Below are positions 3,309 through 42,774 of a DNA stretch of 64,000 nt, one piece after another (position 1 is the first letter of the stretch; the number at the start of each line of letters is the position of its first letter). The notes beneath the pieces are model-generated. The model worked only from the letters and a program-made list of their open reading frames with translations, had not been told where the DNA came from and searched no databases. Made by a program: the position numbers and the translations under genes. Source of the stretch: TPA_inf: Saccharomyces. Lineage: Eukaryota. The stretch is taken from positions 160,001-224,000 of the forward strand of contig BK006946.2 of assembly GCA_000146045.2 (NCBI GenBank). The letters are read 5' to 3'.

Positions 3309-3716
3309 CTGTGTTCAAAAAGATGTACTTGTTTCCTTTTATTTTCTCAACTTTATGAAGACTGAAGAAATTTTCAGCCCAGCCAGAAAAGAAAAAAAAT
3401 AACAGTATTTACATAGCAATGTTAGTAAAATAAGCCACATATTTTTTTATCACATATATTAAGTTCCTCAAGTGCACTGCACGTCAATTAATCACACATA
3501 ATGGGCTTTCCGAAAAAGGTGCGAATATGATTTAATTCAGAGTAAAAGTTCTCTACAAGATCGTTTGATCACAGTCAGTAGAACGAAAGTTATTGATATA
3601 AAAAGTTGATCATCATCTTAGATCTTTTTCACACCTTGGAAAACTTTATGGATGATTAAAAAGCGCATTCTAATGAAAGAAACATAATACCAAAAATTTT
3701 GTCTATTATAACATAC

Positions 3717-7308: not shown

Positions 7309-7944
7309 TGACTACTTTTGTTTGCTTTCTTCTCTATGCGGGAACTGTATTAGCGACATAGGATGTAAGAATACGAAAAGATGCAAGAAGATTAGTCGAC
7401 CAGGTACTTATATATTCACATACTCCAACTGAAAGTATTGGAGATCTAAGGTTCAGCAGTTGGTTCTTGGCGGTTCTTGTATGACATTATTATTGGTCGG
7501 GTCGTAGTTCTCTCGAACAGGAGGAGGGGGCAAGGAGATATCGGCAGGCTTTTTGCTAGCGCCTTGTTTGAAAAGCGTGGGGGTAGGTCTCCAAGCGATT
7601 ATTGAGGAAGTAGTTTCAAGTATTACAGAGTCCAGGGCACAAGGGTCTTCATTATAGAGAGAGAATTTTCGTGAAAAAAATGGGCAGAATGCCACATGTT
7701 AGCAATGCAACGACTTGAGTGGGGGGTGATCCTTCCGATGTATGCGTGAAAGATCTCGTGTTGTGCAGGAAAGGGAATCATTTCGGAAAAAAAAGATGCA
7801 ACAAGGAGGATGGCATGTGGATACTACGTTCTTGCGTAATATCCTTTTTGTTGCCTGTGTTAATACGTGAGCAACATTTTTTGTTAAAGTAGGCGATCAA
7901 CTATTGCCCCCTGATATTGGTAGTAATTCTGCTAAAATATCGGC

Positions 7945-8263
7945 TGAGAAATGGTGATTCTCAAATAATTGCTGGGATTCCACTGGATATGGCCCCATTC
8001 TTAGATATATGGAACGTAGTAGAAGGCCTCTTAGAGGCTATGGGAGTCTCTCAAGAGAAAATCGACATTTTTACGTAATCATTCGTTCATTTCACTTTAT
8101 ACGTCATGATTCAATATCGTATTACTTTATCAAGTACCCGCGTTTAAACTTCATTAAATGACTGCGTCTCAATCTTTATGTCATCCTCCCTCCGCAAGTG
8201 ACAATGTACTGGTAAAATAAAAACTAACTAACTAGATGATATTTTTAGAGTTTTATTCCAACG
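7945..8263 (-). repeat. Degenerate delta-like solo LTR (older Ty1/Ty2-family LTR remnant)
   Basis: In reverse complement it reads cgTTGGAATAAAACTC...ATGGAATCCCAGCAATTATTTGAGAATCACCATTTCTCA. This is collinear with delta LTRs, including the TYA start region, but strongly diverged. The boundaries are approximate. Confidence 0.55.
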
Positions 8264-8348: not shown

Positions 8349-8681
8349 TGAAGAATGGGTGAATTTTGAGATAATCGTTGGGATTCCATTTTTAATAAGG
8401 CAATAATATTAGGTATGTAGAATGTACTAGAAGTTCTCCTCGAGGATTTAGGAATCCATAAAAGGGAATCTGCAATTCTACACAATTCTATAAATATTAT
8501 TATCATCATTTTATATGTTAATATTCATTGATCCTATTACATTATCAATCCTTGCGTTTCAGCTTCCACTAATTTAGATGACTATTTCTCATCATTTGCG
8601 TCATCTTCTAACACCGTATATGATAATATACTAGTAACGTAAATACTAGTTAGTAGATGATAGTTGATTTTTATTCCAACA
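8349..8681 (-). mobile_element. Solo delta LTR (Ty1/Ty2-type, 333 bp) flanked by a 5-bp target-site duplication CTTAT
   Basis: In reverse complement it begins TGTTGGAATAAAAATCAACTATCATCTACTAACTAGTATTTACG... and ends ...ATGGAATCCCAACGATTATCTCAAAATTCACCCATTCTTCA. CTTAT sits at 8344..8348 and again at 8682..8686. The element lies 113 bp upstream of tRNA-Tyr. Confidence 0.8.
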
Positions 8682-18425: not shown

Positions 18426-19637
18426 ATGGAGATTTACATTAGACTTAACGCAGATGTCGAGCACGACTATGCGTTTCAGGTGTCAAATGAAGACACCATA
18501 AATAACAAAATTAAGAAGATTTTCCCTTCCAAGACGGGTTTGGCGGACTTAATGGTGCTGAGACCATCAATTTTCCATGAGAAGGAGCCCGTAAAGTTCT
18601 ATAAGTCTATCCATCCAGGGTACCTGTCCGAAGGTGGTTGTTTGATGTTCCATTATGAAGCTGATAACGAAGAAAATCTCGAGGAGTTGAATGACTCCAA
18701 GCCGCTTATTGACCAGTTGTGGCCTGGTCAGCTAGTTGTTCCGGAGTGGAAGCTATCCAAGAAAAACATATGGGTATACACCATTATTATGTTGGCCTGG
18801 CTATATACCGATTTGCCCGACGCCATTTCTCCAACCCCAGGTATTTGTTTGACTAATCAATTGTCTAGACTATTGATTCCTGTAGCCAAGCACATGGATT
18901 TACCTGAAATTGCCGCTAAACTCGAACAAGAAGTTCAGGCAAACTATTCTAGTCTCGTAGCTCAATGGCTTTTCTTTGTCATGCACATTTTCAAAGTGGG
19001 CATAATTACTTTATTCCTCAAATTAGGCATTGCCAACCCCATCAGCTTCAATCCTTACAAGTTATGGAGTTTGAGAGATTTAACTTCTCCTTCTGCTAAC
19101 GGCGCTAAGAATTCTGGCGGCAATAACAACACTACTGACTTAAAGACACGTTTGCGCTCTCTGGGCTGGATTGGTGCTAAGAGAGCTACTTACGACGATT
19201 ACCAGACTAACTATTACAACTATGTCATAGATAAGATGGGTGGTGCAGTTGCTGCTTATAGAGCGGGCGCGATTAGGAAAGCTGCAGCACCAGGTATCCA
19301 ACTTGTGGCTGGAGAGGGTTTCCAAAGTCCTCTAGAAGATAGGTTCACTGCTTCCACTTTCACGGCTATTAAAACCGAACGGAAATTCATTTTAAGTGAA
19401 GAATACTTTGTGGAGCTGGAAAACAATCTAAAGAAGATCTTGGAAGAGTATGACGGGGATATTGGTAAGATGAATGCTGAAATTAGGAGGTTTAGAAGGT
19501 TTGGTATTTATGAACCAGATGAAAAACTGGCCTCGCTAGTTAAGCTCAGAAGAGAAATTGCTGATGAGAAAGAGAAAGCATCAAACAATGATGCTACTTT
19601 TGGTATAAAAAAGAATGATTTGAAAAAATCTAATTAA
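18426..19637 (+). CDS. GSF2: ER membrane protein required for hexose-transporter secretion, 403 aa
   Basis: 403-aa ORF with an ATG at 18426. Position and length match YML048W. Confidence 0.8.
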   Translation: MEIYIRLNADVEHDYAFQVSNEDTINNKIKKIFPSKTGLADLMVLRPSIFHEKEPVKFYKSIHPGYLSEGGCLMFHYEADNEENLEELNDSKPLIDQLWPGQLVVPEWKLSKKNIWVYTIIMLAWLYTDLPDAISPTPGICLTNQLSRLLIPVAKHMDLPEIAAKLEQEVQANYSSLVAQWLFFVMHIFKVGIITLFLKLGIANPISFNPYKLWSLRDLTSPSANGAKNSGGNNNTTDLKTRLRSLGWIGAKRATYDDYQTNYYNYVIDKMGGAVAAYRAGAIRKAAAPGIQLVAGEGFQSPLEDRFTASTFTAIKTERKFILSEEYFVELENNLKKILEEYDGDIGKMNAEIRRFRRFGIYEPDEKLASLVKLRREIADEKEKASNNDATFGIKKNDLKKSN

Positions 19638-23897: not shown

Positions 23898-23968
23898 TGC
23901 GCAAGCCCGGAATCGAACCGGGGGCCCAACGATGGCAACGTTGGATTTTACCACTAAACCACTTGCGC
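23898..23968 (-). tRNA. tG(GCC): tRNA-Gly (GCC), 71 nt, no intron
   Basis: The reverse complement reads GCGCAAGTGGTTTAGTGGTAAAATCCAACGTTGCCATCGTTGGGCCCCCGGTTCGATTCCGGGCTTGCGCA. An A-run on the plus strand at 23887..23895 is the poly-T terminator. Confidence 0.95.
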
Positions 23969-24460
23969 GATCTTTATTGGTATTTGTTGGAACATAGAGT
24001 TAACTAACCATATATAACAACTTCTTAAATGCACAGTACAGTCTATTCAAAACTGTAGCTATGCGCTGCATCTTGTGGCAAACTCGAATGGAATTGTGGG
24101 TTTGCTAGGTCTCTGTCCATCTGTAAACAATATTTCCCGGGAACGGGCAACAAAGGTAATGTTTATATGTGTTGGAATAAAAATCCACTATCGTCTATCA
24201 ACTAATAGTTATATTATCAATATATTATCATATACGGTGTTAAGATGATGACATAAGTTATGAGAAGCTGTCATCGAGGTTAGAGGAAGCTGAAGTGCAA
24301 GGATTGATAATGTAATAGGATAATGAAACATATAAAACGGAATGAGGAATAATCGTAATATTAGTATGTAGAAATATAGATTCCATTTTGAGGATTCCTA
24401 TATCCTCGAGGAGAACTTCTAGTATATTCTGTATACCTAATATTATAGCCTTTATCAACA

Positions 24461-25783
24461 ATGGAATCCCAACAATTATCTAATTACCCAAATATATCTC
24501 ATGGTAGCGCCTGTGCTTCGGTTACTTCTAAGGAAGTCCACACAAATCAAGATCCGTTAGACGTTTCAGCTTCCAAAATTCAAGAATATGATAAGGCTTC
24601 CACTAAGGCTAACTCTCAACAGACAACAACACCTGCTTCATCAGCTGTTCCAGAGAACCTCCATCATGCCTCTCCTCAACCTGCTTCAGTACCACCTCCA
24701 CAGAATGGGCCGTACCCACAGCAGTGCATGATGACCCAAAACCAAGCCAATCCATCTGGTTGGTCATTTTACGGACACCCATCTATGATTCCGTATACAC
24801 CTTATCAAATGTCGCCTATGTACTTTCCACCTGGGCCACAATCACAGTTTCCGCAGTATCCATCATCAGTTGGAACGCCTCTGAGCACTCCATCACCTGA
24901 GTCAGGTAATACATTTACTGATTCATCCTCAGCGGACTCTGATATGACATCCACTAAAAAATATGTCAGACCACCACCAATGTTAACCTCACCTAATGAC
25001 TTTCCAAATTGGGTTAAAACATACATCAAATTTTTACAAAACTCGAATCTCGGTGGTATTATTCCGACAGTAAACGGAAAACCCGTACGTCAGATCACTG
25101 ATGATGAACTCACCTTCTTGTATAACACTTTTCAAATATTTGCTCCCTCTCAATTCCTACCTACCTGGGTCAAAGACATCCTATCCGTTGATTATACGGA
25201 TATCATGAAAATTCTTTCCAAAAGTATTGAAAAAATGCAATCTGATACCCAAGAGGCAAACGACATTGTGACCCTGGCAAATTTGCAATATAATGGCAGT
25301 ACACCTGCAGATGCATTTGAAACAAAAGTCACAAACATTATCGACAGACTGAACAATAATGGCATTCATATCAATAACAAGGTCGCATGCCAATTAATTA
25401 TGAGAGGTCTATCTGGCGAATATAAATTTTTACGCTACACACGTCATCGACATCTAAATATGACAGTCGCTGAACTGTTCTTAGATATCCATGCTATTTA
25501 TGAAGAACAACAGGGATCGAGAAACAGCAAACCTAATTACAGGAGAAATCCGAGTGATGAGAAGAATGATTCTCGCAGCTATACGAATACAACCAAACCC
25601 AAAGTTATAGCTCGGAATCCTCAAAAAACAAATAATTCGAAATCGAAAACAGCCAGGGCTCACAATGTATCCACATCTAATAACTCTCCCAGCACGGACA
25701 ACGATTCCATCAGTAAATCAACTACTGAACCGATTCAATTGAACAATAAGCACGACCTTCATCTTAGGCCAGAAACTTACTGA
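24461..25783 (+). CDS. TYA: Ty1 TYA (Gag), 440 aa
   Basis: The ORF starts inside the 5' LTR ([17 protein letters not shown]...). The Gag sequence is typical Ty1. Confidence 0.9.
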
Positions 25784-28700
25784 ATCTACAGTAAATCATA
25801 CTAATCATTCTGATGATGAACTCCCTGGACACCTCCTTCTCGATTCAGGAGCATCACGAACCCTTATAAGATCTGCTCATCACATACACTCAGCATCATC
25901 TAATCCTGACATAAACGTAGTTGATGCTCAAAAAAGAAATATACCAATTAACGCTATTGGTGACCTACAATTTCACTTCCAGGACAACACCAAAACATCA
26001 ATAAAGGTATTGCACACTCCTAACATAGCCTATGACTTACTCAGTTTGAATGAATTGGCTGCAGTAGATATCACAGCATGCTTTACCAAAAACGTCTTAG
26101 AACGGTCTGACGGCACTGTACTTGCACCTATCGTAAAATATGGAGACTTTTACTGGGTATCTAAAAAGTACTTGCTTCCATCAAATATCTCCGTACCCAC
26201 CATCAATAATGTCCATACAAGTGAAAGTACACGCAAATATCCTTATCCTTTCATTCATCGAATGCTTGCACATGCCAATGCACAGACAATTCGATACTCA
26301 CTTAAAAATAACACCATCACGTATTTTAACGAATCAGATGTCGACTGGTCTAGTGCTATTGACTATCAATGTCCTGATTGTTTAATCGGCAAAAGCACCA
26401 AACACAGACATATCAAAGGTTCACGACTAAAATACCAAAATTCATACGAACCCTTTCAATACCTACATACTGACATATTTGGTCCAGTTCACAACCTACC
26501 AAAAAGTGCACCATCCTATTTCATCTCATTTACTGATGAGACAACAAAATTCCGTTGGGTTTATCCATTACACGACCGTCGCGAGGACTCTATCCTCGAT
26601 GTTTTTACTACGATACTAGCTTTTATTAAGAACCAGTTTCAGGCCAGTGTCTTGGTTATACAAATGGACCGTGGTTCTGAGTATACTAACAGAACTCTCC
26701 ATAAATTCCTTGAAAAAAATGGTATAACTCCATGCTATACAACCACAGCGGATTCCCGAGCACATGGAGTCGCTGAACGGCTCAACCGTACCTTATTAGA
26801 TGACTGCCGTACTCAACTGCAATGTAGTGGTTTACCGAACCATTTATGGTTCTCTGCAATCGAATTTTCTACTATTGTGAGAAATTCACTAGCTTCACCT
26901 AAAAGCAAAAAATCTGCAAGACAACATGCTGGCTTGGCAGGACTTGATATCAGTACTTTGTTACCTTTCGGTCAACCTGTTATCGTCAATGATCACAACC
27001 CTAACTCCAAAATACATCCTCGTGGCATCCCAGGCTACGCTCTACATCCGTCTCGAAACTCTTATGGATATATCATCTATCTTCCATCCTTAAAGAAGAC
27101 AGTAGATACAACTAACTATGTTATTCTTCAGGGCAAGGAATCCAGATTAGATCAATTCAATTACGACGCACTCACTTTCGATGAAGACTTAAACCGTTTA
27201 ACTGCTTCATATCAATCGTTCATTGCGTCAAATGAGATCCAACAATCCGATGATCTTAACATAGAATCTGACCATGACTTCCAATCTGACATCGAACTAC
27301 ATCCTGAGCAACCGAGAAATGTCCTTTCAAAAGCTGTGAGTCCAACCGATTCCACACCTCCGTCAACTCATACTGAAGATTCGAAACGTGTTTCTAAAAC
27401 CAATATTCGCGCACCCAGAGAAGTTGACCCCAACATATCTGAATCTAATATTCTTCCATCAAAGAAGAGATCTAGCACCCCCCAAATTTCCAATATCGAG
27501 AGTACCGGTTCGGGTGGTATGCATAAATTAAATGTTCCTTTACTTGCTCCCATGTCCCAATCTAACACACATGAGTCGTCGCACGCCAGTAAATCTAAAG
27601 ATTTCAGACACTCAGACTCGTACAGTGAAAATGAGACTAATCATACAAACGTACCAATATCCAGTACGGGTGGTACCAACAACAAAACTGTTCCGCAGAT
27701 AAGTGACCAAGAGACTGAGAAAAGGATTATACACCGTTCACCTTCAATCGATGCTTCTCCACCGGAAAATAATTCATCGCACAATATTGTTCCTATCAAA
27801 ACGCCAACTACTGTTTCTGAACAGAATACCGAGGAATCTATCATCGCTGATCTCCCACTCCCTGATCTACCTCCAGAATCTCCTACCGAATTCCCTGACC
27901 CATTTAAAGAACTCCCACCGATAAATTCTCATCAAACTAATTCCAGTTTGGGTGGTATTGGTGACTCTAATGCCTATACTACTATCAACAGTAAGAAAAG
28001 ATCATTAGAAGATAATGAAACTGAAATTAAGGTATCACGAGACACATGGAATACTAAGAATATGCGTAGTTTAGAACCTCCGAGATCGAAGAAACGAATT
28101 CACCTGATTGCAGCTGTAAAAGCAGTAAAATCAATCAAACCAATACGGACAACCTTAAGATACGATGAGGCAATCACCTATAATAAAGATATTAAAGAAA
28201 AGGAAAAATATATCGAAGCATACCACAAAGAAGTCAACCAACTATTGAAAATGAATACTTGGGACACTGACAAATATTATGACAGAAAAGAAATAGACCC
28301 TAAAAGAGTAATAAATTCAATGTTTATCTTCAACAGGAAACGTGACGGTACTCATAAAGCTAGATTTGTTGCAAGAGGTGATATTCAGCATCCTGACACT
28401 TACGACTCAGGCATGCAATCCAATACCGTACATCACTATGCATTAATGACATCCCTGTCACTTGCATTAGACAATAACTACTATATTACACAATTAGACA
28501 TATCTTCGGCATATTTGTATGCAGACATCAAAGAAGAATTATACATAAGACCTCCACCACATTTAGGAATGAATGATAAGTTGATACGTTTGAAGAAATC
28601 ACTTTATGGATTGAAACAAAGTGGAGCGAACTGGTACGAAACTATCAAATCATACCTGATAAAACAGTGTGGTATGGAAGAAGTTCGTGGATGGTCATGC

Positions 28701-29729
28701 GTATTTAAGAATAGTCAAGTAACAATTTGCTTATTCGTTGATGATATGATATTGTTCAGCAAAGACTTAAATGCAAATAAGAAAATCATAACAACACTCA
28801 AGAAACAATACGATACAAAGATAATAAATCTGGGTGAAAGTGATAACGAAATTCAGTACGACATACTTGGCTTAGAAATCAAATATCAAAGAGGTAAATA
28901 CATGAAATTAGGTATGGAAAACTCATTAACTGAGAAAATACCCAAATTAAACGTACCTTTGAATCCAAAAGGAAGAAAACTTAGCGCTCCAGGTCAACCA
29001 GGTCTTTATATAGACCAGGATGAACTAGAAATAGATGAAGATGAATACAAAGAGAAGGTACATGAAATGCAAAAGTTGATTGGTCTAGCTTCATATGTTG
29101 GATATAAATTTAGATTTGACTTACTATACTACATCAACACACTTGCTCAACATATACTATTCCCCTCTAGGCAAGTTTTAGACATGACATATGAGTTAAT
29201 ACAATTCATGTGGGACACTAGAGATAAACAACTGATATGGCACAAAAACAAACCTACCGAGCCAGATAATAAACTAGTCGCAATAAGTGATGCTTCATAT
29301 GGTAACCAACCATATTACAAGTCACAAATTGGCAACATATATTTACTTAATGGAAAGGTAATTGGAGGAAAGTCCACCAAGGCTTCATTAACATGTACTT
29401 CAACTACGGAAGCAGAAATACACGCGATAAGTGAATCTGTCCCATTATTAAATAACCTCAGTCACCTTGTGCAAGAACTTAACAAGAAACCAATTACTAA
29501 AGGATTACTAACCGACAGTAAATCTACAATCAGTATAATTATATCCAATAATGAAGAGAAATTTAGAAACAGATTTTTTGGTACTAAAGCAATGAGACTA
29601 AGAGATGAAGTATCAGGAAATCATCTGCACGTATGCTATATCGAAACCAAAAAGAATATTGCAGACGTAATGACCAAACCTCTTCCGATAAAAACATTCA
29701 AACTATTAACAAACAAATGGATTCATTAG
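24461..29729 (+). CDS. TYB: Ty1 TYA-TYB (Gag-Pol) fusion by +1 ribosomal frameshift, 1755 aa: join(24461..25765,25767..29729)
   Basis: Slippery heptamer CTTAGGC at 25763..25769. The Pol frame shows protease DSGAS, an integrase zinc motif H-H...C-C with DDE, RT motif VDDM and RNase H DAS(Y)G. 435 + 1320 codons give 1755 aa. Confidence 0.88.
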
Positions 29730-30243
29730 ATCTATTACATTATGGGTGGTATGTTGGAATAAAAATCCACTATCGTCTATCAACTAATAGTTATATTATC
29801 AATATATTATCATATACGGTGTTAAGATGATGACATAAGTTATGAGAAGCTGTCATCGAGGTTAGAGGAAGCTGAAGTGCAAGGATTGATAATGTAATAG
29901 GATAATGAAACATATAAAACGGAATGAGGAATAATCGTAATATTAGTATGTAGAAATATAGATTCCATTTTGAGGATTCCTATATCCTCGAGGAGAACTT
30001 CTAGTATATTCTGTATACCTAATATTATAGCCTTTATCAACAATGGAATCCCAACAATTATCTAATTACCCACATATATCTCAATATGCTATGTTCTTTA
30101 TTATCAATATGCAAAATATTACTCTATGAAGTATAAATATATGTACTGCTTATATACATGCATGCTTTTTAATTACACTTAAAAACAAAAAATGTTTTAA
30201 GTTTCCCTAGTTGAAACCAAGTTATTAAAGTTTACTAGTTTGT

Positions 30244-36067: not shown

Positions 36068-36170
36068 GGGGCGAGCTGGGAATTGAACCCAGGGCCTCTC
36101 GCATGCTTTGTCTTCCTGTTTAATCAGGAAGTCGCCCAAAGCGAGAATCATACCACTAGACCACACGCCC
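36068..36170 (-). tRNA. tP(UGG): tRNA-Pro (UGG) with a 31-nt intron
   Basis: The reverse complement reads GGGCGTGTGGTCTAGTGGTATGATTCTCGCTTTGGG[cgacttcctgattaaacaggaagacaaagca]TGCGAGAGGCCCTGGGTTCAATTCCCAGCTCGCCCC. A T-run terminator follows (A-run on plus at 36053..36067). Confidence 0.9.
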
Positions 36171-36627
36171 TTGTGAACTTGTGAATCTTAGCCACTAAGG
36201 AATCACCGAATAGTAAAAGTTTTCTGACAACTACAATATTAAGCCCTTAACAACAATAATGAATATTGAGTGCATAATGTTGAAATGGAACTCTAAAATA
36301 TCATTTGTTTAGTAGTATTCGTGTTACTAGTTGTTGGAATAGAAATCAACTATCATCTACTAACTAGTATTTACATTACTAGTATATTATCATATACGGT
36401 GTTAGAAGATGACGCAAATGATGAGAAATAGTCATCTAAATTAGTGGAAGCTGAAACGCAAGGATTGATAATGTAATAGGATCAATGAATATAAACATAT
36501 AAAACGGAATGAGGAATAATCGTAATATTAGTATGTAGAAATATAGATTCCATTTTGAGGATTCCTATATCCTCGAGGAGAACTTCTAGTATATTCTGTA
36601 TACCTAATATTATAGCCTTTATCAACA

Positions 36628-37950
36628 ATGGAATCCCAACAATTATCTCAACATTCACATATTTCTCATGGTAGCGCCTGTGCTTCGGTTACTTCTAAGG
36701 AAGTCCACACAAATCAAGATCCGTTAGACGTTTCAGCTTCCAAAACAGAAGAATGTGAGAAGGCTTCCACTAAGGCTAACTCTCAACAGACAACAACACC
36801 TGCTTCATCAGCTGTTCCAGAGAACCCCCATCATGCCTCTCCTCAACCTGCTTCAGTACCACCTCCACAGAATGGGCCGTACCCACAGCAGTGCATGATG
36901 ACCCAAAACCAAGCCAATCCATCTGGTTGGTCATTTTACGGACACCCATCTATGATTCCGTATACACCTTATCAAATGTCGCCTATGTACTTTCCACCTG
37001 GGCCACAATCACAGTTTCCGCAGTATCCATCATCAGTTGGAACGCCTCTGAGCACTCCATCACCTGAGTCAGGTAATACATTTACTGATTCATCCTCAGC
37101 GGACTCTGATATGACATCCACTAAAAAATATGTCAGACCACCACCAATGTTAACCTCACCTAATGACTTTCCAAATTGGGTTAAAACATACATCAAATTT
37201 TTACAAAACTCGAATCTCGGTGGTATTATTCCGACAGTAAACGGAAAACCCGTACGTCAGATCACTGATGATGAACTCACCTTCTTGTATAACACTTTTC
37301 AAATATTTGCTCCCTCTCAATTCCTACCTACCTGGGTCAAAGACATCCTATCCGTTGATTATACGGATATCATGAAAATTCTTTCCAAAAGTATTGAAAA
37401 AATGCAATCTGATACCCAAGAGGCAAACGACATTGTGACCCTGGCAAATTTGCAATATAATGGCAGTACACCTGCAGATGCATTTGAAACAAAAGTCACA
37501 AACATTATCGACAGACTGAACAATAATGGCATTCATATCAATAACAAGGTCGCATGCCAATTAATTATGAGAGGTCTATCTGGCGAATATAAATTTTTAC
37601 GCTACACACGTCATCGACATCTAAATATGACAGTCGCTGAACTGTTCTTAGATATCCATGCTATTTATGAAGAACAACAGGGATCGAGAAACAGCAAACC
37701 TAATTACAGGAGAAATCTGAGTGATGAGAAGAATGATTCTCGCAGCTATACGAATACAACCAAACCCAAAGTTATAGCTCGGAATCCTCAAAAAACAAAT
37801 AATTCGAAATCGAAAACAGCCAGGGCTCACAATGTATCCACATCTAATAACTCTCCCAGCACGGACAACGATTCCATCAGTAAATCAACTACTGAACCGA
37901 TTCAATTGAACAATAAGCACGACCTTCACCTTAGGCCAGGAACTTACTGA
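36628..37950 (+). CDS. TYA: Ty1 TYA (Gag), 440 aa
   Basis: [17 protein letters not shown]..., the canonical Ty1 Gag N-terminus. Confidence 0.9.
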
Positions 37951-40900
37951 ATCTACGGTAAATCACACTAATCATTCTGATGATGAACTCCCTGGACACC
38001 TCCTTCTCGATTCAGGAGCATCACGAACCCTTATAAGATCTGCTCATCACATACACTCAGCATCATCTAATCCTGACATAAACGTAGTTGATGCTCAAAA
38101 AAGAAATATACCAATTAACGCTATTGGTGACCTACAATTTCACTTCCAGGACAACACCAAAACATCAATAAAGGTATTGCACACTCCTAACATAGCCTAT
38201 GACTTACTCAGTTTGAATGAATTGGCTGCAGTAGATATCACAGCATGCTTTACCAAAAACGTCTTAGAACGATCTGACGGCACTGTACTTGCACCTATCG
38301 TAAAATATGGAGACTTTTACTGGGTATCTAAAAAGTACTTGCTTCCATCAAATATCTCCGTACCCACCATCAATAATGTCCATACAAGTGAAAGTACACG
38401 CAAATATCCTTATCCTTTCATTCATCGAATGCTTGCACATGCCAATGCACAGACAATTCGATACTCACTTAAAAATAACACCATCACGTATTTTAACGAA
38501 TCAGATGTCGACAGGTCTAGTGCTATTGACTATCAATGTCCTGATTGTTTAATCGGCAAAAGCACCAAACACAGACATATCAAAGGTTCACGACTAAAAT
38601 ACCAAAATTCATACGAACCCTTTCAATACCTACATACTGACATATTTGGTCCAGTTCACAACCTACCAAAAAGTGCACCATCCTATTTCATCTCATTTAC
38701 TGATGAGACAACAAAATTCCGTTGGGTTTATCCATTACACGACCGTCGCGAGGACTCTATCCTCGATGTTTTTACTACGATACTAGCTTTTATTAAGAAC
38801 CAGTTTCAGGCCAGTGTCTTGGTTATACAAATGGACCGTGGTTCTGAGTATACTAACAGAACTCTCCATAAATTCCTTGAAAAAAATGGTATAACTCCAT
38901 GCTATACAACCACAGCGGATTCCCGAGCACATGGAGTCGCTGAACGGCTCAACCGTACCTTATTAGATGACTGCCGTACTCAACTGCAATGTAGTGGTTT
39001 ACCGAACCATTTATGGTTCTCTGCAATCGAATTTTCTACTATTGTGAGAAATTCACTAGCTTCACCTAAAAGCAAAAAATCTGCAAGACAACATGCTGGC
39101 TTGGCAGGACTTGATATCAGTACTTTGTTACCTTTCGGTCAACCTGTTATCGTCAATGATCACAACCCTAACTCCAAAATACATCCTCGTGGCATCCCAG
39201 GCTACGCTCTACATCCGTCTCGAAACTCTTATGGATATATCATCTATCTTCCATCCTTAAAGAAGACAGTAGATACAACTAACTATGTTATTCTTCAGGG
39301 CAAGGAATCCAGATTAGATCAATTCAATTACGACGCACTCACTTTCGATGAAGACTTAAACCGTTTAACTGCTTCATATCAATCGTTCATTGCGTCAAAT
39401 GAGATCCAACAATCCGATGATCTTAACATAGAATCTGACCATGACTTCCAATCTGACATCGAACTACATCCTGAGCAACCGAGAAATGTCCTTTCAAAAG
39501 CTGTGAGTCCAACCGATTCCACACCTCCGTCAACTCATACTGAAGATTCGAAACGTGTTTCTAAAACCAATATTCGCGCACCCAGAGAAGTTGACCCCAA
39601 CATATCTGAATCTAATATTCTTCCATCAAAGAAGAGATCTAGCACCCCCCAAATTTCCAATATCGAGAGTACCGGTTCGGGTGGTATGCATAAATTAAAT
39701 GTTCCTTTACTTGCTCCCATGTCCCAATCTAACACACATGAGTCGTCGCACGCCAGTAAATCTAAAGATTTCAGACACTCAGACTCGTACAGTGAAAATG
39801 AGACTAATCATACAAACGTACCAATATCCAGTACGGGTGGTACCAACAACAAAACTGTTCCGCAGATAAGTGACCAAGAGACTGAGAAAAGGATTATACA
39901 CCGTTCACCTTCAATCGATGCTTCTCCACCGGAAAATAATTCATCGCACAATATTGTTCCTATCAAAACGCCAACTACTGTTTCTGAACAGAATACCGAG
40001 GAATCTATCATCGCTGATCTCCCACTCCCTGATCTACCTCCAGAATCTCCTACCGAATTCCCTGACCCATTTAAAGAACTCCCACCGATAAATTCTCATC
40101 AAACTAATTCCAGTTTGGGTGGTATTGGTGACTCTAATGCCTATACTACTATCAACAGTAAGAAAAGATCATTAGAAGATAATGAAACTGAAATTAAGGT
40201 ATCACGAGACACATGGAATACTAAGAATATGCGTAGTTTAGAACCTCCGAGATCGAAGAAACGAATTCACCTGATTGCAGCTGTAAAAGCAGTAAAATCA
40301 ATCAAACCAATACGGACAACCTTACGATACGATGAGGCAATCACCTATAATAAAGATATTAAAGAAAAAGAAAAATATATCGAGGCATACCACAAAGAAG
40401 TCAATCAACTGTTGAAGATGAAAACTTGGGACACTGACGAATATTATGACAGAAAAGAAATAGACCCTAAAAGAGTAATAAACTCAATGTTTATCTTCAA
40501 CAAGAAACGTGACGGTACTCATAAAGCTAGATTTGTTGCAAGAGGTGATATTCAGCATCCTGACACTTACGACTCAGGCATGCAATCCAATACCGTACAT
40601 CACTATGCATTAATGACATCCCTGTCACTTGCATTAGACAATAACTACTATATTACACAATTAGACATATCTTCGGCATATTTGTATGCAGACATCAAAG
40701 AAGAATTATACATAAGACCTCCACCACATTTAGGAATGAATGATAAGTTGATACGTTTGAAGAAATCACTTTATGGATTGAAACAAAGTGGAGCGAACTG
40801 GTACGAAACTATCAAATCATACCTGATAAAACAGTGTGGTATGGAAGAAGTTCGTGGATGGTCATGCGTATTTAAGAATAGTCAAGTAACAATATGTTTA

Positions 40901-41896
40901 TTTGTTGACGACATGATTTTATTCAGCAAAGACTTAAATGCAAATAAGAAAATCATAACAACACTCAAGAAACAATACGATACAAAGATAATAAATCTGG
41001 GTGAAAGTGATAACGAAATTCAGTACGACATACTTGGCTTAGAAATCAAATATCAAAGAGGTAAATACATGAAATTAGGTATGGAAAACTCATTAACTGA
41101 GAAAATACCCAAATTAAACGTACCTTTGAATCCAAAAGGAAGAAAACTTAGCGCTCCAGGTCAACCAGGTCTTTATATAGACCAGGATGAACTAGAAATA
41201 GATGAAGATGAATACAAAGAGAAGGTACATGAAATGCAAAAGTTGATTGGTCTAGCTTCATATGTTGGATATAAATTTAGATTTGACTTACTATACTACA
41301 TCAACACACTTGCTCAACATATACTATTCCCCTCTAGGCAAGTTTTAGACATGACATATGAGTTGATACAATTCATGTGGGACACTAGAGATAAACAACT
41401 GATATGGCACAAAAACAAACCTACCGAGCCAGATAATAAACTAGTCGCAATAAGTGATGCTTCGTATGGCAACCAACCGTATTATAAATCACAAATTGGC
41501 AACATATATTTACTTAATGGAAAGGTAATTGGAGGAAAGTCCACCAAGGCTTCATTAACATGTACTTCAACTACGGAAGCAGAAATACACGCGATAAGTG
41601 AATCTGTCCCATTATTAAATAATCTAAGTTACCTGATACAAGAACTTAACAAGAAACCAATTATTAAAGGCTTACTTACTGATAGTAGATCAACGATCAG
41701 TATAATTAAGTCTACAAATGAAGAGAAATTTAGAAACAGATTTTTTGGCACAAAGGCAATGAGACTTAGAGATGAAGTATCAGGTAATAATTTATACGTA
41801 TACTACATCGAGACCAAGAAGAACATTGCTGATGTGATGACAAAACCTCTTCCGATAAAAACATTTAAACTATTAACTAACAAATGGATTCATTAG
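36628..41896 (+). CDS. TYB: Ty1 TYA-TYB Gag-Pol by +1 frameshift, 1755 aa: join(36628..37932,37934..41896)
   Basis: CTTAGGC heptamer at 37930..37936. The Pol ORF is intact and nearly identical to the Pol of the first element. Confidence 0.88.
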
Positions 41897-42774
41897 ATCT
41901 ATTACATTATGGGTGGTATGTTGGAATAGAAATCAACTATCATCTACTAACTAGTATTTACATTACTAGTATATTATCATATACGGTGTTAGAAGATGAC
42001 GCAAATGATGAGAAATAGTCATCTAAATTAGTGGAAGCTGAAACGCAAGGATTGATAATGTAATAGGATCAATGAATATAAACATATAAAACGGAATGAG
42101 GAATAATCGTAATATTAGTATGTAGAAATATAGATTCCATTTTGAGGATTCCTATATCCTCGAGGAGAACTTCTAGTATATTCTGTATACCTAATATTAT
42201 AGCCTTTATCAACAATGGAATATCAGCAATCATCAGATGAATGTTAAAATTGTGTAAGGATGCTCATTCTGTTTCGTTAACTTTCCAGTTTTCTCGAGGA
42301 CTTCTGGTTCATTATACGTGAAATTATTTACCTAACCAAAATTATCAAACAATTCTTCCTTACTTCAGCTAAAGATTCGGCGAGACAGAGGTTGAACACA
42401 ATGCAAGCGCATCGATATTTTTACGGCCGCAGTTGAATGGATCCAAAAGCATTGGCCAATTTAAATGAAAGAAATAAGTAAATTTCTAAAGATTTATCTA
42501 AGTGCCTCTTCTTTCCTGTATTCAATAATTTAGTGTCTAAAACGCAAAGGTATAAATTTGATAATGTTCTTTTATTAACTGTCAATAAAGTATATATGAA
42601 AAAGTGTGAAGAACCTTCGTATAAAATCTATCTAGTAAAATATTTTTAATTATGTGCGGATGTATTGTCTATTCCCATGTGCTTTGCTTATGTCCTGTTA
42701 GAGGACTTTTAAGTATGCTGTATACATGTTTTAAATTTTTGCCTTTATTCTTTCTCTCTCTTACTATATCGCTC

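Follow-up and report, generated by a model that had tools for sequence, protein, structure and literature searches.

Here, we analysed a 64,000-nucleotide stretch of Saccharomyces cerevisiae S288C chromosome XIII (assembly GCA_000146045.2, contig BK006946.2, forward strand, positions 160,001 to 224,000; hereafter 'the window', with position 1 as its first letter), in which the second Ty1 retrotransposon ends in a chimeric 3' long terminal repeat (LTR) and lacks a target-site duplication. This element is YMLWTy1-2 (Ty1-ML2; YML040W, YML039W), located at chromosome XIII 196332-202221. Our comparison of locus copies suggests that the chimeric 3' LTR arose secondarily, by a deletion that joined the 3' LTR to a piece of an old delta (the LTR of Ty1) in direct orientation, the direction of the change being deduced from the canonical state, which is probably ancestral. 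With a probability of roughly 85%, a normal two-ended integration would have been followed by a 149-bp deletion between 24-bp repeats.

In the window, the 5' LTR is intact (36332..36668, plus strand, 337 bp, TGTTGG...TTTCTCA), both by its sequence and by the coordinates of Carr et al. 2012, and is directly preceded by CTAGT (36327..36331, plus strand), the sole surviving copy of the target-site duplication. The 3' LTR (41919..42221, plus strand) is 100% identical to the 5' LTR over 303 bp, through ...ATCAACAATGGAAT at 42221, and continues thereafter as ATCAGCAATCATCAGATGAATG..., the last 34 bp of the LTR (positions 304-337) being absent. Two direct LTRs surround an internal domain of about 5.3 kb, as in a full-length Ty1; the 3' LTR has no CA terminus, and CTAGT is not found 3' of the element. 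As a control, the first Ty of the window does carry a target-site duplication (ATATG). An earlier note on this DNA, made from the sequence alone, had rightly described the intact 5' LTR, the agreement of both LTRs up to 42221 and the unrepeated CTAGT. The surviving part of the 3' LTR ends in the 24-bp block TATAGCCTTTATCAACAATGGAAT (42198..42221, plus strand), the single remaining direct-repeat copy and the join of the deletion. It is followed by the tail of an old direct delta fragment (delta-c; 42222..42240, plus strand), which has diverged from LTR positions 304 to about 320.

The same insertion was found in undeleted form in a chromosome-level assembly (GCA_010356925.1, CM021139.1; locus copy L022), in which Ty1 is located at exactly the same base. 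At its 5' junction, ...GTGTTACTAGT adjoins the LTR start TGTTGGAATAGAAATC... (also given as TGTTGGAATAG). At its 3' junction, ...CAACATTCACCCATTTCTCA is followed by CTAGT, by ATAGTACCTGAGAAATGGG... and by the rest of a 110-bp segment known from strains without the insertion. The 3' LTR of L022, with CACCCATTTCTCA as its end, is complete (337 bp), so that both LTRs read TG...CA and CTAGT stands on both sides. The undeleted allele is marked by the string CATTTCTCACTAGTATAGTACCTGAGAAATGG, the deleted junction of the window by CCTAATATTATAGCCTTTATCAACAATGGAATATCAGC. Over 6.7 kb, from the tRNA gene upstream of which Ty1 inserted to the YMD8 stop codon, window and L022 differ by one single-nucleotide polymorphism (SNP; position 38513) and one 149-bp indel, while zero SNPs were detected in about 10 kb of remaining unique flank. 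The SNP is located within TYB and reads A in the window and T in L022. L022 also holds two tandem Tys at YMLWTy1-1, as does the S288C-derived strain RDKY6076 described by Chan & Kolodner 2011 (PMC3102749), in contrast to the single element of the reference. Given the near absence of SNPs and this shared tandem arrangement, L022 is, judged by its sequence, a near-isogenic chromosome of the S288C lineage that carries the same insertion in canonical form. As L022 has both a complete 3' LTR and two flanking copies of CTAGT, the window allele appears to be the derived one. The canonical terminus ...TTTCTCA plus a second CTAGT, which the earlier note had named as the finding that would speak against a chimeric end, is indeed absent from the window and present in L022, where it points to the derived state of the window allele rather than to a misreading of it.

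The extent of the deletion follows from the same comparison. L022 contains two copies of TATAGCCTTTATCAACAATGGAAT at a spacing of 149 bp, the first within the 3' LTR (positions 280-303) and the second within the old direct delta tail; this block constitutes the perfect 24-bp core of a wider direct repeat of 62 nt with 79% identity. Indel size and repeat spacing are thus the same (149 bp), and one repeat copy was kept (42198-42221), as is characteristic of a deletion between direct repeats. The lost DNA comprises 34 bp of the LTR end, CTAGT, ATAGTACC (8 bp), a 58-bp inverted delta tail, a 20-bp loop and one of the two 24-bp blocks. In L022, inverted arms of 77 nt, 96% complementary and separated by a 13-nt spacer, CTAGTATAGTACC, are formed by the LTR end together with the inverted tail. 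When folded as single-stranded DNA, the L022 stretch reaches -73.7 kcal/mol (z=-20); its counterpart in the window yields -4.1 kcal/mol (z=+1.3) and no structure. The interval deleted from the presumed progenitor hence contains an inverted repeat capable of hairpin formation.

A two-base difference between both LTRs of L022 was also observed. Its 3' LTR (19455-19457) reads CACCCATTTCTCA and its 5' LTR CACATATTTCTCA, as does the window at 36659-36661, so that two adjacent bases differ (CACCC versus CACAT); at these two bases, the 3' LTR agrees with the inverted delta arm 13 bp away. This change may represent a correction templated by the quasi-palindrome, or a conversion from another delta.

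The state of the site before insertion is preserved in other strains. Copies of the locus were fetched by exact-protein look-ups with YMD8, VPS71, YAT1, YML037C, AMD1 and SRC1 exon 1, which yielded 65 locus copies from about 48 assemblies, 62 of them without Ty1 at this position. All 62 empty alleles have the same 110 bp between ...GTGTTACTAGT, which ends in ACTAGT, and ATCAGCAATCATCAG / ATCAGCAATC, and CTAGT occurs only once. Within the 110 bp, ATAGTACC is followed by TGAGAAATGGGTGAATTTTGAGATAATTGTTGGGATTCCATTGTTGATAAAGGCTATA, by the 20-bp loop and by TATAGCCT(CA/TT)ATCAACAATGGAAT. A search of the empty allele with a delta profile (nhmmer) detected three fragments: a head in plus orientation (LTR positions 2-60, E=0.0075), an inverted tail (positions 335-262, E=1e-12) and the direct tail delta-c (positions 259-319, E=9.7e-9). 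The DNA to the right of the break in the window is, in every strain, simply the continuation of the direct delta tail, and ...TATAGCCTCAATCAACAATGGAAT(A/C)TCAGCAATCATCAG forms one continuous delta-like piece in the empty alleles. The earlier note had proposed that the sequence after 42221 is a diverged LTR tip. The profile match supports a delta-like piece up to about position 319; past ATGGAAT, though, only about 10 of 17 bases agree with the LTR tip, and the proposal is to that degree weakly supported. In the comparison with other strains, which the note had suggested, the insertion is missing elsewhere and the site consists of old delta remnants, among them inverted as well as direct tails.

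The head of the old delta, delta-a, directly precedes the Ty1 of the window (36278..36331, plus strand). It corresponds to LTR positions 1-52 with 39/52 identical bases (75%) and one 2-nt gap, in agreement with the partial delta of about 75% identity reported earlier, apart from its start, which is at 36278 and not at 36277. Taken alone, the window piece is marginal (nhmmer E=0.74, with a permissive Smith-Waterman score inside the range of shuffled sequences). In strains with the empty site, it continues as ATAGTACC to LTR position 60, which accounts for the E-value of 0.0075 given above. Delta-a is collinear with the LTR and in plus orientation in every empty locus, regardless of Ty1, as expected of an old delta fragment. 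Since it is present in all 62 empty loci, it was not made by this Ty1, and from its distribution among strains it is an ancient, fixed remnant and not a duplication, contrary to the description of the 5' piece as 'duplicated'. The earlier view that Ty1 inserted into an older delta stands in so far as the element landed inside an old, fixed delta remnant. Its further step, a recombination of the 3' LTR with the rest of that delta, holds for the in-register exchange with an older delta that removed the LTR tip and the duplication, but the partner was a separate direct fragment. A candidate interpretation in which the 3' flank continues the old delta head from position 53 was rejected, as the head of the empty alleles ends in ATAGTACC and the inverted fragment comes next.

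Further variation was seen within the empty site. Strains differ in the orientation of the 20-bp loop, which is inverted in some relative to others (GTATTCTGTATAGCTGATAT versus ATATCAGCTATACAGAATAC, e.g. in L002 and L008 versus L006, L011 and L022), and the arm bases next to the loop (AAA/TTG, CA/TT) are mismatched in some haplotypes and complementary in others. Taken together, loop inversion and arm homogenisation resemble a natural flip-flop palindrome of small size in which arms are converted.

Following these observations, we propose a sequence of three steps. As the sequences show, Ty1 integrated normally, by both ends, at CTAGT, inside a nest of ancient delta remnants and 161 bp upstream of the tRNA gene; the product was a complete element with two 337-bp LTRs and the CTAGT duplication, a state that survives in the near-isogenic assembly. 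A 149-bp deletion then joined TATAGCCTTTATCAACAATGGAAT of the 3' LTR to the identical block in the old delta; the difference between both alleles is directly observed, and its direction is the probable one for the reasons given above. The third step concerns the cause. By placing the LTR end 13 bp from the inverted delta tail, the insertion would have created the quasi-palindrome with 77-nt arms, and a hairpin formed at replication or after breakage could have promoted slippage or single-strand annealing between the direct repeats. We regard such a contribution of the quasi-palindrome as rather likely. Excision driven by inverted repeats between flanking direct repeats is established in yeast (PMC3748122). 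Loop inversion, arm homogenisation and the two-base change in the 3' LTR of L022 may be other signs of arm-to-arm interaction at this locus. Several points weigh against the proposed course of events. In that study, efficient excision needed inverted repeats of at least 800 bp (PMC3748122), while the arms here measure 77 nt, and recombination or slippage between 24-bp repeats spaced by 149 bp could take place with no hairpin at all. Moreover, the undeleted allele was recovered from one assembly only, and a second independent sequence of the deleted allele was not found among the records and contigs searched, so that its presence in living S288C is putative.

The deletion may have occurred in the sequenced yeast lineage, in the cosmid or lambda clones propagated in Escherichia coli, or in the reference assembly. 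It is known that E. coli deletes hairpin-forming palindromes between flanking repeats, and the deleted interval is a strong hairpin former. An artefact of the reference, in which living S288C/AB972 would resemble L022 and the 149 bp would have been lost during clone propagation in E. coli for the chromosome XIII sequence of the 1990s or during assembly, is therefore a tenable view, if on the unlikely side. It bears only on where the deletion occurred, not on what it is. In unique DNA, L022 and the window are otherwise identical, and the exact Ty1-ML2 Gag-Pol is recorded on one contig only, the reference itself, with no independent assembly confirming the 3' junction of the window. The reference was later re-sequenced with this site retained, which would count against an artefact. 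Nearby, the reference already disagrees with S288C-derived strains, as the YMLWTy1-1 tandem is present in RDKY6076 (PMC3102749) and in L022. On the other hand, direct evidence for an artefact was not found, and genuine differences between S288C sub-lines, to which the SNP at 38513 and the tandem Ty would belong, are equally possible. Southern blots of YMLWTy1-2 gave the expected sizes (PMC3102749), although they were unable to resolve 149 bp.

Two further explanations dispense with a local deletion. The integrase could have joined the 5' end of the cDNA at CTAGT, while the 3' end was joined by homologous recombination with the old direct delta, so that neither a duplication nor a complete 3' LTR would ever have existed at the locus. 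Homologous recombination is a known route for Ty1 cDNA into the genome, and the observed junctions, a precise LTR terminus on the 5' side and a join in register with the delta homology on the 3' side, would suit such a one-step origin. However, the element of L022, with one SNP in 5.9 kb, occupies the identical base, its 3' LTR is complete and CTAGT flanks it on either side. A normal two-ended integration therefore did occur, and the window allele is set apart from its product only by the 149-bp deletion. A one-step origin would need two independent, near-identical insertions at one nucleotide; L022 contradicts it, and we consider it highly improbable. Alternatively, an exchange with a distant Ty1 or delta, be it by ectopic recombination, by translocation or inversion, or by gene conversion, could have replaced the 3' end and removed the duplication. 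Such exchange is said to be the classical explanation for Ty elements without duplications, reportedly so in work by Kim and colleagues from 1998. Yet in 62 loci the flanks of the Ty1 in the window belong to a single contiguous empty site, where they are only 110 bp apart, the DNA beyond the break is exactly the continuation of the local delta fragment, and the gene order is unchanged. The collinear flanks contradict a distant exchange, which we likewise consider highly improbable.

Searches for additional copies of either allele returned little. Exact-protein look-ups gave no record for the 54-amino-acid open reading frame that spans the junction of the window, nor for the TYB reading frame of the second Ty1. 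The look-up with Ty1-ML2 Gag retrieved only a copy on chromosome X of CEN.PK and a 2.5-kb Logan contig, and those with YML037C, AMD1 and SRC1 exon 1 only loci without this Ty1 insertion (L045 and L050 hold other insertions); with YAT1 and a shorter flank, no places came back beyond the ten already retrieved. In an exact-pattern scan of metagenome contigs, neither the predicted undeleted junction nor the junction of the window was found, and a scan of the same kind for contamination, covering bacterial and archaeal genome contigs, detected neither the 3' nor the 5' junction of the window.

The identity of locus and element rests on several agreements. The gene order RSE1 ... PRP39, RRN11, YAT1, VPS71, YMD8, AMD1, RAD52 is that of chromosome XIII in other strains, and snR54 (3535-3620) further supports a location on chromosome XIII's left arm. 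In Files S2 and S3 of Carr et al. 2012 (PMC3511429), YMLWTy1-1 is listed at chromosome XIII 184170-190083, and YMLWTy1-2, there named chrXIII_u26+_TY1, at 196332-202234, with LTRs at 196332-196668 (337 bp) and 201919-202234 (316 bp). These coordinates equal window coordinates plus 160000. Among the SGRP strains, the same study (PMC3511429) scored YMLWTy1-2 as polymorphic, with S288c, W303 and Y55 carrying it. The Gag-Pol reconstructed for the second Ty1 matches NP_013672.1 / Q03434, 'Transposon Ty1-ML2 Gag-Pol', exactly. As coordinates, LTR lengths and Gag-Pol all agree, the element is YMLWTy1-2.

Pol III genes attract Ty1 insertion, and the 5' end of the Ty1 is located 161 bp upstream of a tRNA gene at 36068..36170 on the minus strand, as expected of this preference. 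The window contains another tRNA gene at 23898-23968. The gene at 36068..36170 contains an intron and is recognised by the Rfam tRNA model with 48.7 bits; ARAGORN without introns misses it, and ARAGORN -i calls it Ala(tgc) with the intron placed differently. Read manually, with a 31-nt intron after position 37 that leaves the anticodon loop TTTGGGT, it is probably a tRNA-Pro(UGG) gene. At least six further independent insertions were observed in other strains within the same approximately 150-200 bp upstream of the tRNA gene: a solo delta (L012), a Ty whose LTR end is of Ty2 type and which has an AATAT duplication (L014), a 6.6-kb, Ty-sized insertion nearer the tRNA gene together with a solo delta within the inverted tail (L020), an inverted Ty within the loop (L025), and an extra 2.2 kb (L045) and 338 bp (L050). 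The stretch upstream of the tRNA gene, equivalent to 36170-42260 of the window, is a classic Ty insertion hotspot.

Apart from its 3' end, the element appears intact. The primer-binding site TGGTAGCGCC (36669..36678, plus strand) adjoins the 5' LTR, and the polypurine tract TGGGTGGTA (41910..41918, plus strand) abuts the 3' LTR; both were read from the sequence, and we take their identity and function to be those of the Ty1 literature. The Ty1 primer-binding site pairs with tRNA-iMet. TYA (Gag) is an open reading frame of 440 amino acids (36628..37950, plus strand) with its ATG at LTR position 297, and TYA-TYB (Gag-Pol; 36628..41896, plus strand) extends uninterrupted over 1755 amino acids via a +1 frameshift at CTTAGGC (37930-37936). 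The Gag-Pol of a full-length Ty1 comprises protease, integrase and RT-RNase H; PF01021, PF00665 and PF07727 were detected in the adjacent Ty of L022. The U5 end of the 3' LTR is not contained in Ty1 genomic RNA, and U5 is rebuilt from the 5' LTR during reverse transcription. Since 5' LTR, primer-binding site, polypurine tract, Gag and Gag-Pol are intact and only the U5 end of the 3' LTR was lost, YMLWTy1-2 should, by the standard scheme of Ty1 replication, still give rise to complete copies and probably remains a competent donor.

Other Ty and delta sequences in the surroundings were recorded as well. YMLWTy1-1 (24170-30083 of the window) has LTRs with a Ty2-like U3 that are about 89% identical to those of the second element; in L022 (1-7296), it is represented by a tandem pair sharing one LTR, which matches YMLWTy1-1A/B of Chan & Kolodner (PMC3102749). 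Two solo deltas, 7943-8263 and 8349-8681, both on the minus strand, adjoin each other, one young (about 90% identical to the Ty1 LTR, 227 bits) and the other old (82 bits). Delta-a (36278-36331) and the old solo delta 7943-8263 have an insertion, CTCTAAAA, in common. Beyond the junction, the stretch 42250..42385 (plus strand), which contains TCTCGAGGACTTCTGG, faintly resembles LTR positions of about 196-330; with an nhmmer E-value of 3.5 and a local alignment no better than those of shuffled sequences, this likeness is unconfirmed, and the stretch may be a still older delta remnant.

YMLWTy1-2 (Ty1-ML2) as described in the literature is the same element as the one analysed here. In the literature searched, its short 3' LTR is only implicit in coordinate tables, papers that name the element leave the LTR undiscussed, and neither the undeleted allele nor the 149-bp deletion nor the absence of the duplication was found described. 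Two known types of event resemble the one proposed. Delta-delta recombination, by which solo LTRs are formed and Tys lose their duplication, likewise joins direct-oriented sequences in register with loss of the intervening DNA. Here, in contrast, the LTR was joined to an old fragment of 60 bp at a distance of 149 bp, with only 24 bp of perfect homology (62 bp at 79%); the element was kept, and the loss is confined to the LTR tip, the duplication and 110 bp of flank. Deletions stimulated by inverted repeats, known from yeast and E. coli, start from a hairpin-capable repeat placed between direct repeats, of which one copy is kept while the palindrome is lost (PMC3748122), as at this locus. The rate of such deletions characteristically depends on the inverted repeat and on genes of replication or hairpin processing (Pol delta, Mre11-Sae2, or SbcCD in E. 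coli). Here, the arms are only 77 nt long, and the part played by the hairpin is deduced from sequence. The event as such is ordinary: a known element with a secondary deletion, neither a new kind of element nor a new principle. What is added to the earlier note is the exact 149-bp deletion, its 24-bp repeats, the quasi-palindrome with 77-nt arms and a possible origin in clones or assembly.

The value of the finding is mostly curatorial, as it explains the short 3' LTR and the absent duplication in one of the 32 Ty1 elements of the reference, and flags a 149-bp difference and a nearby collapsed tandem Ty between the S288C reference and a chromosome-level assembly of the S288C lineage. Its wider interest is limited to a possible 149-bp reference error or polymorphism that hides a natural palindrome. 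In the undeleted allele, a palindrome capable of folding back is located exactly at the 3' end of YMLWTy1-2, where it is invisible from the reference. Chan & Kolodner described an isolate, I12, whose rearranged chromosome unites two YMLWTy1-2 copies head to head through their 3' ends in a junction of about 11.4 kb (PMC3102749); it is this same 3' end that carries the palindrome. That S288C-derived laboratory strains in truth carry the undeleted allele, and that the reference therefore lacks a 167-bp near-perfect quasi-palindrome acting as a natural fragile or fold-back site, is a speculative proposal that we consider doubtful. If true, it would explain the inverted YMLWTy1-2 : YMLWTy1-2 fusion of I12 and the 2-nt 'correction' in the 3' LTR of L022, and both read mapping and models of Ty-mediated rearrangement should then include a palindrome with 77-nt arms that is absent from the reference. 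In terms of mechanism, the locus offers a clean natural example of a new insertion that, together with old transposon debris, gives rise to an unstable palindrome.

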